From: Yuukianura sp. NJ FZ-2021
Taxonomy: Eukaryota
Reading direction: 5' to 3'
NCBI GenBank assembly: GCA_046563655.1
Contig: CM102285.1
Coordinates: forward strand, 2,852,001 to 2,916,000
DNA: 64,000 bases
In this document: in pieces, positions 19,729 to 23,754 of the stretch
How the letters are laid out: each line of letters opens with the position of its first letter
How positions within the stretch are numbered: the first letter of the stretch is position 1
Program-made: the position numbers and the translations under genes
The notes under the pieces: generated by a model
Database searches by the model: none
Seen by the model: the letters and a program-made list of their open reading frames with translations, nothing else
Told to the model about the DNA's origin: nothing

Positions 19729-22700
19729 AGAAAGTCCAAGTTTTTCCACCATTGAAGAATGTTTTGTTTTCTGAAGCGTTTTTGTAAAGATGTCTGCTTT
19801 TTGTTCCGCTGAGGGAACATATTTAACTTCAATTGTCTTGTTAGCGGTAAGCTCGCGGATGTAGTGGAATTTGACATCTATGTGCTTTGTCCGTTTGTGA
19901 AATTCTGGATTTTGAGATAGCTTGATAGTACTCTGGTTGTCGACGAAGATCTGCGTGGGGCTTTTTTGCTTAATCCCAAGTTCTTCAATTTGGGCTCTCA
20001 ACCAGATTGCTTCTCTTGAAGCTTCGGCTAAAGCAATGTATTCGGCTTCTGTTGAGGACATTGCTATTATCGGTTGTTTCACTGATTTCCAGCTGATGAG
20101 TGAATTTCCGAGGAAAAAGACGAATCCGCTTGTGGACTTTCGATCATTTTTGTCTCCGGCAAAGTCTGAGTCGGAAAATCCGATTAGTTCCAAGGAGCTC
20201 CCTCTTTCGTAGCTTATTCCAAAGTTTGGAGTTCCGGAGAGATAGCGGAGAATGTTCTTTGCTTGATCCCAATGCGTATTGTCATACGCATTGTTGAATT
20301 GTGAGAGCTTGGATACAGCGTATGCAATGTCAGGGCGAGTCAACCGACTTAGGAATAGTAATGCCCCAATAAGTTGTTGAAACGGCAAGTTCTTAGAACA
20401 TTCCTTTGCGGCTACTAGTTCCACAGTGGGCTGAAGTGGCGTGGATATGGCTTTACATTCTTGCATATTGAATTGAAGGAGTAACTGCTTCACATATCTT
20501 TGCTGGCAGATGAAGTACCCCTGGTCCCATGTAGTAATTTCGAGACCAACAAAAGTCTCAGCACTGTTGAACGTCAATGTAAAGAATTCCTGAATGCCTT
20601 CAACTACTTTAAGTGCCATCTTTTGATCTGGTGCAGAGATGAGGCAGTCATCTACGTAGAGTCCCAAGTAGATCGGTTGTTTTGTGCTTGAGGCAATGAA
20701 GATGGAGTTGTCACTTGGAAGGGCTTTGAATCCAAGTGAGGACAAAGCTTGCGTGAATTTCTCATTCCAACATCTGGGGGATTGCTTCAGACCGTACAAA
20801 CTTTTGTTTAGTTTGCACACGACGTTTCCATTGACAGTGACACCTTGTGGAACTTCCATGAAAATTTGCTCTTTGAGGTCCCCGTGAAGAAATGCGGTTT
20901 TGATGTCCATTTGCAGTAGAGTGTGTTTCAGAGCAGCTGAGATGGCTAAGATAATTCGAAGCGATTCAAATCTGCATACGGAGGCAAATGTGTCCTCATA
21001 GTCGATTCCGTACTGTTGTTGGAATCCTCGAGCGACAAGACGAGCTTTGAAGAGCTCTGCGCCATCTGTCCCAGTCTTTATGCGGTAGATCCAGCGGCTA
21101 TCCAGAGTTTTTGTGTTCACTGGTCTTGGGACAATTGTCCATGTCTTGTTAGTCTCATGGCTTTGGATTTCTTCTTTCATTGCTTGAATCCATTGAGCTG
21201 AGTCTCCGCTTTTGATTGCTTCATTGTAGTTCGACGGAGTTTCTCTCACTTGAGCCATATTAGCTTGGTACTTTGTGGGCGTTTTGAGAGATTTTCGATC
21301 TCTCAGTTCCATTTCGAAGGGCTTTTTCTTCTTTCGTAGATCAATTTCAACTGATTTGTTGATCGGAACATTTGTAACAAAATTTCCATCATTGGTTTGG
21401 ACGCACACTTCCATAGTAGGCGTGGCTTGTATTGCTGAAAGATCCTCCGGATCCATAGGTTCAGTGTCGGCATTGCTGATATCAAGCTCTTCTTCGTCCT
21501 CTTCTTTTACGTCTTCTTCATTACCAAGATCGCTATCTGTCTCCTGCTTTGCGTCTTCCTCGGCCTCTTCCTTAGGGAAAACTTCTGATACAGCTGATCT
21601 GATGATGACCCGTTGATCCGAGGACTTCTCCTCTTCGCTAAAAGAAACATTTCTGGCTTCCACGATTTGTCGCGTTTCTGGATTGTATAAACGGTACTGG
21701 CCATTTGAATAGCCAACAAAAATCATCTTTTGACTTTTGGGCTTCCAGACAGATCGTTTGCTTGCTGGGATGTGCATATAAGCTGTGCATCCGAACACAC
21801 GTAAGTGCGCTAACTTGGGTTTCTTCTTGAAGATTTGCTCGTAAGCGGTAGTTTCGCCAGATTGCCTATTGATGACTCTGTTTAGGACGTAAACAGAGGT
21901 CGCTACTGCTTCTCCCCACAAATGGGTTGGTGTTTTGAACTCTTGAAGAAGAGTTCTGGCTGCCTCTTTAACTGTGCGGATGTCACGTTCTATTTTCCCG
22001 TTGGACTCGGGACAATAAGCTGAAGAAGTTTCGTGTGTAATTCCGCGATCCGCTAGATGGCTCTGAAGTTCGTCATTGACGAACTCAGTGCCATTATCTG
22101 TTCGTAGTGTTTTGAACGTATTTCCGGTTTTGTTCTCGATGAACTTGATGTAGTCCTGAACGGCTCTTGGTGCTTCTGATTTTTGTTTCAGGAAGTAAAC
22201 AACTTTGAATCCGGATGCTTCATCTTTCACTAGGAGGAAGTAGCTTGCACCTCCTAGTGAAGTAACAGCAATTTTTCCACTGAGGTCTGCGTGGGCCATC
22301 TCGCCAACAAGACAGCTTCGCTTTGAAGTTGATGATGGGAAGGGCTTCCTAGTTTCCTTCCCTAGATGGCAGGCGTCGCAGTTTAACTTTGCTCGTTCGC
22401 TGAAGTTCTTGATTCCCGTGGCTGCTTCGTTTTGGATCGTGGCTGCAACGTAACTTGAGTTGATATGGCACAAGCGTTTGTGCCATAAGATGCTTTCGTC
22501 AATCCTGGATTTAAGTGCATGTTGGGCTTGAAGTGGCTTGAAGTCCATGATGTAGAGTCCGTTTTGGAAGTAGGCTGTAGGACCGGGCTCTCCGGTGTCT
22601 TTTGTGAACATTGTTGCTTGGGCGTTTCTAGTGATAACGTACCCCTTCTGTGCCATAATCGTCTCGGAAAACAGATTCGATGCGTTTGGGATGTAGAGTA

Positions 22701-23754
22701 CTTCCTCAATAATTTTCTTTTCAAATTTGCCACCAATTTTTGCTTCTACAAGAATATCACCTTGTCCAAGGGCTTGGATTGGTGAGCCTGACGTTTGGTG
22801 AACTTCTTTCTTAATTAAGAAAGGCTTATAAGAAGTGAAAAAATCTTTATTGCCACAAATGTGTTGGGAGGCTCCGGAATCGGAGTACCATACTAGTTTA
22901 TCATTACTAGTGGTATTGGCCATTGCTGCATAATGTGGTGTCTTGTCTTCTCCTTGGGTGATTACGTTGATTTGCTTCATCTGGTTGGCCAGAAGACGTA
23001 CTTCAGTCTTCATGCGTAGGTACTTCTGAATGTCGTATCCTGGCGGGATGCCCATCCTTCGCTTTTTGGTGGCTCGGGTCCGCTCTGCTGGTTCTGGATC
23101 GGAGTTCTCCGGCTTCAGTGTGCATATGTTCATGACGTAGAGGCCATCTTTGCGCGTTGCAGTCATGTCGAAGTCACCATTTTGTCCATAGTACTGAGTA
23201 CTAAAGTGATTTCTTGAAATTAGATAGCCTTTTGATGTCAGGACGCTTTCAGAGATGATGTTGCGGAAGCCTGGCACAAACCAGACGTGGGTTAGCTTGA
23301 CGTGGCAGAATTGAACATCAGCGTCATCTTGGAAATGGCGTGTCGTCTCATTCTGTTTGATGAGGATGTTCACATCTCCGTATCCGGTTGCCTGAGCCTT
23401 TTGGCCATTGGCCAATTCTACAGTTCTTCGCTGTGAAAATCGCTTGAAGTTGAACAGCCAAGCCCGATTCCCCGTCATGTGGTGAGAGGCACCGCTGTCG
23501 CTGACCCAGTCCCCTGGATCGACTATTCCACCTGCCATGAAGGCGGATGCAGATCTGTGCTGCTGTTGGCTCCCTTTTCCGCCATTGTTGCCGCTATGTT
23601 GCCCATTGTTGCCGTTTTGCTGTCCATTGTTGCCGTTCGATGTTGATGGGCTCCGGCATTCCTTCGCCCAGTGGCCACGGCGTCCACATTTCGCACAATT
23701 TGTTCTCTTTTGAGCTCCGCAATGTTTGTTTTCTTCTTTCCATTTGTTTGACAT
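19270..23754 (-). CDS. pol: Copia NC-Pol polyprotein: CCHC knuckle, two proteases, integrase, RT, RNase H, then in-frame N-terminal part of Env
   Basis: CX2CX4HX4C at 23656-23697; DSGAS at 23491 and 22873; WHKRLCH...CDAC; HADLSG/TDNGTEF/NGKIER (DDE); KARLVARGF, DIKTAFLHG, LNKSLYGLKQSPR, YVDD (20647-20658); FSDSDFAG, STEAEY, VDNQ, ADIFTK. Confidence 0.97.
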   Translation of the reverse strand: MSNKWKEENKHCGAQKRTNCAKCGRRGHWAKECRSPSTSNGNNGQQNGNNGQHSGNNGGKGSQQQHRSASAFMAGGIVDPGDWVSDSGASHHMTGNRAWLFNFKRFSQRRTVELANGQKAQATGYGDVNILIKQNETTRHFQDDADVQFCHVKLTHVWFVPGFRNIISESVLTSKGYLISRNHFSTQYYGQNGDFDMTATRKDGLYVMNICTLKPENSDPEPAERTRATKKRRMGIPPGYDIQKYLRMKTEVRLLANQMKQINVITQGEDKTPHYAAMANTTSNDKLVWYSDSGASQHICGNKDFFTSYKPFLIKKEVHQTSGSPIQALGQGDILVEAKIGGKFEKKIIEEVLYIPNASNLFSETIMAQKGYVITRNAQATMFTKDTGEPGPTAYFQNGLYIMDFKPLQAQHALKSRIDESILWHKRLCHINSSYVAATIQNEAATGIKNFSERAKLNCDACHLGKETRKPFPSSTSKRSCLVGEMAHADLSGKIAVTSLGGASYFLLVKDEASGFKVVYFLKQKSEAPRAVQDYIKFIENKTGNTFKTLRTDNGTEFVNDELQSHLADRGITHETSSAYCPESNGKIERDIRTVKEAARTLLQEFKTPTHLWGEAVATSVYVLNRVINRQSGETTAYEQIFKKKPKLAHLRVFGCTAYMHIPASKRSVWKPKSQKMIFVGYSNGQYRLYNPETRQIVEARNVSFSEEEKSSDQRVIIRSAVSEVFPKEEAEEDAKQETDSDLGNEEDVKEEDEEELDISNADTEPMDPEDLSAIQATPTMEVCVQTNDGNFVTNVPINKSVEIDLRKKKKPFEMELRDRKSLKTPTKYQANMAQVRETPSNYNEAIKSGDSAQWIQAMKEEIQSHETNKTWTIVPRPVNTKTLDSRWIYRIKTGTDGAELFKARLVARGFQQQYGIDYEDTFASVCRFESLRIILAISAALKHTLLQMDIKTAFLHGDLKEQIFMEVPQGVTVNGNVVCKLNKSLYGLKQSPRCWNEKFTQALSSLGFKALPSDNSIFIASSTKQPIYLGLYVDDCLISAPDQKMALKVVEGIQEFFTLTFNSAETFVGLEITTWDQGYFICQQRYVKQLLLQFNMQECKAISTPLQPTVELVAAKECSKNLPFQQLIGALLFLSRLTRPDIAYAVSKLSQFNNAYDNTHWDQAKNILRYLSGTPNFGISYERGSSLELIGFSDSDFAGDKNDRKSTSGFVFFLGNSLISWKSVKQPIIAMSSTEAEYIALAEASREAIWLRAQIEELGIKQKSPTQIFVDNQSTIKLSQNPEFHKRTKHIDVKFHYIRELTANKTIEVKYVPSAEQKADIFTKTLQKTKHSSMVEKLGLSMPPIASKLSRLVTMLIIMCLFCTTNAWMMTQPVIWKPSKLPVTSGINQVHLLVKLLSPCELLNNSTMHPDLVIPAQTKCNKIYKELFLDEIQILCPGTERTEIHHQSKRELGQHKRFVTLMVIAGAIIITAIVGIAVGITGTVIAVQTKMSC

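Follow-up and report, generated by a model that had tools for sequence, protein, structure and literature searches.

Two diverged copia-type aspartic protease domains in tandem within the pol frame of a young, env-bearing Ty1/copia retrotransposon

The stretch analysed here, called the window throughout, comprises 64,000 nucleotides of contig CM102285.1 (positions 2,852,001 to 2,916,000, forward strand) from the genome assembly GCA_046563655.1 of Yuukianura sp. NJ FZ-2021; all coordinates below are window positions. Its minus strand carries at 17731-25145 a complete Ty1/copia retrotransposon of 7415 bp, bounded by long terminal repeats (LTRs), whose pol gene is an open frame of 1506 amino acids (19270-23790, minus). 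Two aspartic protease domains, which we call PR1 and PR2, lie in tandem inside this frame. Along pol, Pfam places in order a CCHC zinc knuckle, Pol_BBD twice, gag_pre-integrs, rve, SH3_retrovirus, and RVT_2. The element is a member of Ty1/copia on two counts: it has paired LTRs with target-site duplications, and it has a copia-type reverse transcriptase (RT), Gag, and order of pol domains.

The initial annotation of this DNA had described two tandem, diverged protease domains in pol, both with an intact D-S-G motif, and the translation of the minus strand over 22400-23700 bears this out. The PR1 peptide WVSDSGASHHMTGN... has its DSG at 23491-23499, and the PR2 peptide WYSDSGASQHICGN... has its DSG at 22873-22881, 206 residues after that of PR1. 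Both domains read DSGAS at this site. Copia proteases of MEROPS family A11 have a hydrophobic-hydrophobic-Ser (ILS-type) motif in place of ILG, according to the part of PMC2642776 available to us; the corresponding motif is NIISE in PR1 and NLFSE in PR2. A single BLASTP comparison aligned the two domains with 40 identities in 126 positions (32%, E 3e-23), and the scan for two copia-type domains that the initial annotation had proposed as a check returned two stretches of Pol_BBD (PF22936) on pol (E 1.1e-38, 131.9 bits against a cutoff of 27). A chance match was rejected, as these scores lie far past chance. The tandem diverged pair is thus confirmed, and by sequence each domain belongs to the copia-type protease family (MEROPS A11, Pfam Pol_BBD). 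The features of the element are as follows.

17726-17730, no strand: target-site duplication AAAAG, low side, directly before the low LTR (from the border alignment of both LTRs)
17731-18114, minus: 3' LTR in element orientation, 384 nt, TG...CA, 100% identical to 24762-25145
18115-18129, minus: purine-rich tract adjoining the 3' LTR, putative polypurine tract by its position
18122-19399, minus: env-like open reading frame (ORF), C-terminal part, with a coiled-coil stretch, a large ectodomain, and a C-terminal membrane anchor (ORF and homology)
19273-19734, minus: env-like N-terminal part in the pol frame, with a signal-like hydrophobic stretch, a basic KR..KR site, and a long hydrophobic stretch (sequence reading)
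19756-20223, minus: RNase H region of pol, conserved with relatives, no separate Pfam row
20431-21150, minus: reverse transcriptase RVT_2 (Pfam PF07727, E 5e-61, pol residues 881-1120)
21625-22539, minus: integrase region with gag_pre-integrs, rve, and SH3_retrovirus (Pfam PF13976, PF00665, PF25597, pol residues 411-722)
22540-22932, minus: PR2, canonical copia-type protease domain (best Pol_BBD stretch, residues 301-384; D-S-G at 22873-22881)
22933-23124, minus: linker between the proteases, about 64 residues with a basic run, read from the translation
23125-23544, minus: PR1, extra, faster-evolving protease domain (second Pol_BBD stretch; D-S-G at 23491-23499)
23523-24389, minus: gag ORF, Retrotran_gag_2 (Pfam PF14223, E 9.5e-27)
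23653-23697, minus: CCHC zinc knuckle at the end of Gag (Pfam zf-CCHC and zf-CCHC_5 under their curated cutoffs, pol-frame residues 32-46; CX2CX4HX4C readable)
24747-24761, minus: putative primer-binding site, tggtagcagataagg directly after the 5' LTR
24762-25145, minus: 5' LTR in element orientation, 384 nt, 100% identical to 17731-18114
25146-25150, no strand: target-site duplication AAAAG, high side, directly after the high LTR

To place the two domains among their relatives, a query running from the knuckle through PR1 and the linker to PR2 was searched with HMMER against 1.84 billion representative proteins, which gave 3538 matches at E <= 0.001; the best 150 were examined. These top matches reach 46-47% identity with PR2 and no more than 38% with PR1. 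Their protease lies about 280 residues from the start, that is, a single protease directly follows the knuckle, and PR1 is the inserted extra copy. We also built a profile of single proteases from 86 near-full-domain matches out of 148 candidates, with three relatives (P0017, P0141, and P0120) set aside. On this profile PR2 scored 158.3 bits and PR1 124.2 bits, the 86 single proteases ranging from 103 to 181 bits with a median of 138.7. By homology PR2 is the canonical, ancestral-like copy to which the catalytic work may be assigned, and PR1, by its score, is a diverged but not degenerate domain within the ordinary range of single proteases. One loop of PR1, between two strands, carries an insertion of 11 residues. 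On a protease tree computed from 31 domains, PR1 branches (1.41 in the window element, 2.82 in P0017) were 1.6-2.4 times as long as those of PR2 (0.58 and 1.76). The linker gave no phmmer match among 151 relatives, and a search of the PDB sequences with a PR2 profile returned zinc knuckles only.

The greater conservation of PR2, in both identity and score, together with the longer branches of PR1, is in line with a reading in which PR2 alone processes the polyprotein as the usual homodimer. PR1 would then be an accessory or partly decayed domain. It might postpone or modulate the activation of PR2 as a spacer or pro-region, in the manner of p6* ahead of the HIV protease, or be a non-catalytic domain near Gag. 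What does not sit easily with such a role is that the window PR1 keeps D-S-G-A-S and scores like a working type of protease.

The fold of PR1 was examined with an AlphaFold2 model computed from an alignment of 49 rows, namely PR1 and 48 short whole matches (<= 347 aa, from the best 150). The model had a mean predicted local distance difference test (pLDDT) score of 88.0 and a predicted template modelling (pTM) score of 0.80; pLDDT was low at model residues 69-72, in the insertion loop. Foldseek against the PDB gave no match at E <= 0.001 for this model; its first hit was the protease of xenotropic murine leukemia virus-related virus (XMRV; E 1.4e-2, probability 1.00, TM 0.43/0.51), followed by the proteases of human immunodeficiency virus (HIV) and feline immunodeficiency virus (FIV). 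VIA-align, run against 48,161 chains, likewise placed the XMRV protease first (Z 7.1, root mean square deviation 3.5, 98 aligned), ahead of the protease-like domain (RVP) of Toxoplasma Ddi1 (Z 6.4) and the proteases of equine infectious anemia virus (Z 5.5) and HIV (Z 5.0). The next ranks were held by proteases of FIV, foamy virus, Rous sarcoma virus, and human T-lymphotropic virus and by a Rickettsia retropepsin, with pepsin lobes at Z 3-4. Because retropepsins rank consistently and the Pfam match agrees, the model can be taken as compatible with a retropepsin fold, with the qualification that the Z values are middling and that the model leans on the family alignment. The fold check proposed at the outset thus came out in favor of PR1 as a retropepsin.

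The element is present in five public runs from two studies, none of them listed as RNA; four (X1, X2, X3, and X5) were compared with the window. A single 1431-nt contig of X2 (record 12) spans 22405-23834 with both protease domains, at one differing letter and one gap, and the protease region is covered in X1 and X3 at 99-100% identity. In X5, which comes from the second organism and study, contigs match 22405-22884 with 7 differing letters and 22954-23750 with 20, and none of those listed joins these two stretches. An assembly duplication was rejected because PR1 and PR2 are just 32% identical and independent Logan contigs cover both. The insertion is polymorphic, both within the sampled organisms and between them, since X1, X2, and X5, three of the four runs, contain empty-site contigs in which 17698 or 17725 is joined directly to 25146. 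In X1 the element has a depth of about 1060-1270, a several-fold excess over the 209 of the flank contig. Together, the identical LTRs, the polymorphic site, and several near-identical copies indicate that the element is young and apparently still mobile, and that an element with the double protease transposed recently.

Several other features of the runs concern the element. The part of X5 that runs from RT through RNase H to the start of env (19084-21459) has a depth of about 300, against about 11-33 for the gag-protease-integrase part (21724-24891) and the LTRs; a high-copy relative in X5 seems to share just the RT-to-env part. A second gag variant, about 14% diverged, occurs over 23805-24215 at roughly one third of the depth (55 differences in 398 positions in X1 record 7; 46 in 307 in X2 record 14). 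One contig of X3 joins 22438 to 23552 and so skips 1113 bases with both proteases. Its depth is 11.8 against about 1000, the shorter side of the join is 24 letters, and it may derive from a diverged relative; we rejected it as a protease-less copy of the element because the low depth and the short side make it too weak.

The same contigs bear on the reading frames. In this copy gag and pol lie in different frames, which overlap at 23523-23790, and so do the two parts of env, where the shift falls within the overlap 19270-19399. Inside both overlaps, public-run contigs show single-base length differences relative to the window, so that both frame breaks seem peculiar to this copy or to its assembly. 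The relatives, which encode gag-pol-env as single frames, are consistent with this. The tggtagcaga... sequence beside the 5' LTR is presumably complementary to the 3' end of the initiator tRNA-Met.

We asked how common the double protease is among relatives, taken as 151 proteins with a protease match. One protease per element unit is the state of 148 of them. More than one protease location occurs in 15, but 12 of these are gene models that fuse at least two element copies, with repeated Gag, integrase, and RT. Two more, P0141 and P0120, hold nearly identical, recent protease tandems in unrelated copia fragments, the repeat of P0120 additionally taking in the pre-integrase domain. Protease duplications therefore appear to arise easily and to recur, and what is rare, as judged from these proteins, is a copy that is kept and diverges. 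P0017 is the only one of the 151 relatives with two diverged tandem proteases. This protein of 1533 aa, from a metagenome assembly and in a singleton cluster, is colinear with the window pol at 38% identity, from PR1 through the linker, PR2, integrase, RT, and RNase H to the start of env. Pfam finds two Pol_BBD stretches in it; its linker is shorter and has no recognisable similarity to that of the window. Its PR2 reads D-S-G-A-A and scores 114.7 bits. The two PR1 domains are 24% identical (E 8e-13), and the catalytic Asp with the neighboring Ser, Ala, and Ser is kept in both.

Further searches returned no other double protease. Homolog searches gave one match, with a single protease, for pol residues 60-440; P0017 alone for P0017 residues 60-360; and one match, again with a single protease, for P0001 at near lengths. 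A scan for PR1-specific patterns found nothing in viral contigs, and in metagenome contigs it found six loci, all distant copia elements with a single protease. The openly readable literature yielded no natural tandem protease in copia or any other LTR retroelement, subscription journals, Repbase reports, and supplements lying outside that scope.

The presence of the same PR1-PR2 order in an element whose pol is only 38% identical supports the claim of an old, retained duplication. It also bears on whether PR1 is a neutral passenger, a functionless duplicate carried along by an active lineage on its way to decay. The sporadic near-identical tandems of P0141 and P0120 and the faster evolution of PR1 are what such an account could draw on. 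However, PR1 has an open frame and all core motifs at 32% identity to PR2, the element that carries it transposed recently, and neutral sequence would have lost both frame and similarity long before the divergence seen between the window and P0017. We consider a passive PR1 very improbable.

The initial annotation had further suggested that the double protease is tied to the processing of a polyprotein that includes Env. Homologues of the window env are carried by 16 of the 41 long relatives (>= 1000 aa), most of them as single frames of 1713-2005 aa. The C-terminal ORF (18122-19399) has homology to the last 300-370 residues of 14 metagenome gag-pol-env proteins, and the N-terminal part (19273-19734) has a match in 15 relatives, P0017 included. 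Both elements with a double protease thus bear env, but 15 of the 16 env-bearing relatives have one protease, and Pfam found one Pol_BBD stretch in each of the 13 that were scanned. Because single-protease members make up nearly all of this group, the double protease is, on the sequences compared, not a requirement of the env-bearing polyprotein, and the proposed tie to Env was not upheld.

The same polyprotein is relevant to a reading in which PR1 and PR2 are two separate enzymes. Across two polyproteins PR1 would pair with PR1 and PR2 with PR2, each dimer with its own site preference or timing, for example on the Gag side and on the Pol and Env side. Both catalytic motifs are intact, the folds are full length, an identity of 32% allows for different substrate pockets, and a single gag-pol-env frame of the length seen in the relatives is an unusually long substrate. 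Nevertheless, 15 of the 16 env-bearing relatives process a polyprotein of this kind with one protease, and two tethered domains, locally concentrated as they are, would have to keep from pairing with one another, so that a division of labor between two homodimers seems unlikely to us.

As for env itself, neither the window env nor those of 13 relatives had a Pfam match, and there was no PDB sequence match. An Atlas feature search pointed to clusters of Baculo_F and paramyxovirus F (Fusion_gly) at 0.93-0.94, with recognition under the usual level, which we treat as a lead only. An extra envelope-like gene after pol is likewise found in env-bearing copia elements (plant SIRE1) and with the F-type env of insect errantiviruses and bdelloid Ty3/gypsy elements (PMC5408684, PMC13524379; both available in part). 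The window env opens with a signal-like segment, has a basic site ahead of a long hydrophobic stretch, and includes a coiled coil and a C-terminal anchor; this layout resembles the F-type env described in the same portions of these papers (PMC5408684, PMC13524379). In contrast to the gypsy elements with F-type env, the window element is copia-type and has its env in the pol frame, and its kinship to F-type env is a language-model lead. The portions available of the two papers (PMC5408684, PMC13524379) make no mention of a second protease in env-bearing LTR elements.

The history of the duplication was approached with two trees. The first covers integrase to RNase H in 25 rows, the window and 24 of the 41 long proteins; left out were the 12 fused models and 5 truncated proteins (P0004, P0011, P0039, P0138, and P0148). 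It contains an env-bearing clade of 16 rows (support 100/99) and within it a subclade of 10 rows (99/96), made up of the window, P0017, and eight members with a single protease, within which few branches are resolved. P0003 and P0015 join the window in one group (87/84). The double-protease state requires two changes on this tree, and placing the window and P0017 as sisters was not rejected (approximately unbiased (AU) test, p 0.145). In the second tree, that of the 31 protease domains, the PR1 domains of the window and P0017 are sisters (UFboot 93, SH-aLRT 84) on long branches. They also have states in common: the first position of the L-F-S motif is Ile in both PR1s and in none of the 86 single proteases (99% Leu), and the two share a Trp, an Arg, and a Ser present in 7%, 13%, and 9% of the single proteases, respectively. 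Taken together, the sequences favor either a single old duplication with later losses or recombination that spread the PR1 segment. Two independent duplications with convergent change are an alternative that must still be allowed for.

In our view the locus is best explained as a retained tandem duplication of a copia-type (MEROPS A11) aspartic protease in a young, recently mobile, env-bearing Ty1/copia element. The protease of retroelements is an enzyme that works only as a homodimer, a dependence thought to time particle maturation. On this reading PR1 was inserted between the Gag zinc knuckle and PR2, and it is a faster-evolving paralogue that keeps the catalytic Asp and the core residues of the family. 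In the mechanism that we propose, PR1 and PR2, joined by the flexible linker of about 64 residues, may pair in cis, with each domain supplying one Asp to a single active site. The resulting single-chain pseudo-dimer could become active independently of two polyproteins meeting, and the linker and the asymmetric divergence of PR1 might tune the timing of activation. We infer the activity of both domains, their pairing in cis, and the effect on timing alike, and put the probability of a tethered pseudo-dimer paired in cis at roughly 0.4.

Cis pairing is favored because identical domains, newly duplicated and flexibly tethered, would be expected to pair in cis unless something prevented it, and because both PR1s have retained the catalytic Asp over a very long divergence. 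P0017, with its PR1-linker-PR2-integrase-RT-RNase H-env order, speaks for it as well. In work on engineered HIV-1 that was accessible in part (PMC4451514), tandem protease copies boosted Gag cleavage, and the boost fell if either copy was inactivated and was softened by a spacer. These results would fit a joint action of the tandem copies and a damping by the spacer. The asymmetric divergence of PR1 and PR2 recalls, by analogy, the lobes of pepsins.

Several observations weigh against cis pairing. The initial annotation had held that a copy degenerate or missing in other members of the family would tell against its reading. PR1 is absent from the closest relatives, P0003 and P0015, which manage with one protease, and the PR1 of P0017 reads D-S-A-A-S and scores 80.1 bits, under the range of the single proteases. 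A motif and score of this kind would be easier to understand in an accessory domain than in one half of a shared active site. PR2, for its part, is fully canonical, and its 158 bits, above the median of the single proteases, would fit an ordinary PR2 homodimer too. In the portion of PMC4451514 available, the engineered duplication abolished virus production, and constitutive activity can thus be harmful. A sister grouping of the two protease domains of the window was not rejected either (AU p 0.463), which leaves the orthology of the two PR1s insecure, and an AlphaFold2 model of PR1-linker-PR2 computed without an alignment had a pLDDT of 30.7 and was useless for contacts between PR1 and PR2.

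Much of this evidence can equally be claimed for PR1 as an accessory to a PR2 homodimer, as can the finding, in the same portion of the HIV work (PMC4451514), that sequence beside the protease alters activation. Yet the two PR1s, 24% identical to each other, have both held on to the catalytic Asp and the core positions, which would be unexpected for a mere spacer. We regard an accessory PR1 as a serious candidate, if on the doubtful side. Cis pairing is the reading that we prefer, and the full picture that it implies, a natural single-chain retropepsin in which two diverged domains form one asymmetric active site in cis within an active env-bearing copia element, is put forward tentatively.

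Elsewhere in the window, 20 other long ORFs had no Pfam match, and Rfam had no matches in the window. Three open frames of 150-153 codons, about 1.1-1.2 kb apart and without a Pfam match, lie on the plus strand at 57060-59828.

Set beside known systems, the protease of the window element is that of Ty1/copia (Pseudoviridae, family A11) in its family match, its D-S-G-A-S motif, and its place in the order Gag, protease, integrase, RT, and RNase H. In Drosophila copia, a spliced message codes for Gag together with the protease. Whereas one protease is usual in Ty1/copia, this element has two diverged copies in tandem; the pair is a rare architectural variant of a known enzyme, real and retained, and the element that carries it was active recently. 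A little-sampled clade of copia elements, whose envelope-like gene forms part of a single long gag-pol-env frame, is documented here as well. Linked dimers of the HIV-1 protease are reportedly the subject of earlier work. A closer counterpart is the duplicated HIV-1 protease engineered into Gag-Pol, which likewise places two retropepsin domains in one polyprotein, with or without a spacer (PMC4451514, in the part available). The engineered copies were identical and the virus was lost through premature cleavage of Gag (PMC4451514), whereas the window copies are 32% identical, lie about 64 residues apart, and belong to an element that transposed recently. The element thus offers a concrete system for studying the pairing of protease halves in cis, the divergence of their roles, and the tolerance of an arrangement that is lethal in engineered HIV-1.

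The pepsins (MEROPS A1) similarly have two homologous Asp-bearing domains in one chain. The pepsin families gave no match, as no Pfam row of the Asp family was found for pol at E <= 0.1; the tandem is therefore not a member of the pepsin family by sequence, although it may still work like one. A further difference is that the window linker is long and probably flexible, whereas pepsins have a packed sheet between their lobes. To our knowledge, natural intermediates on the way to bilobed pepsins are lacking. Pepsins are generally assumed to derive from a duplication of this kind (PMC2642776, in the part available), and the tandem resembles the proposed first step toward their two lobes. If PR1 and PR2 do pair in cis, the element would represent a retroelement in which activation of the protease is uncoupled from dimerisation of the polyprotein, and a present-day instance of the duplication and fusion from which bilobed pepsins have long been proposed to originate.

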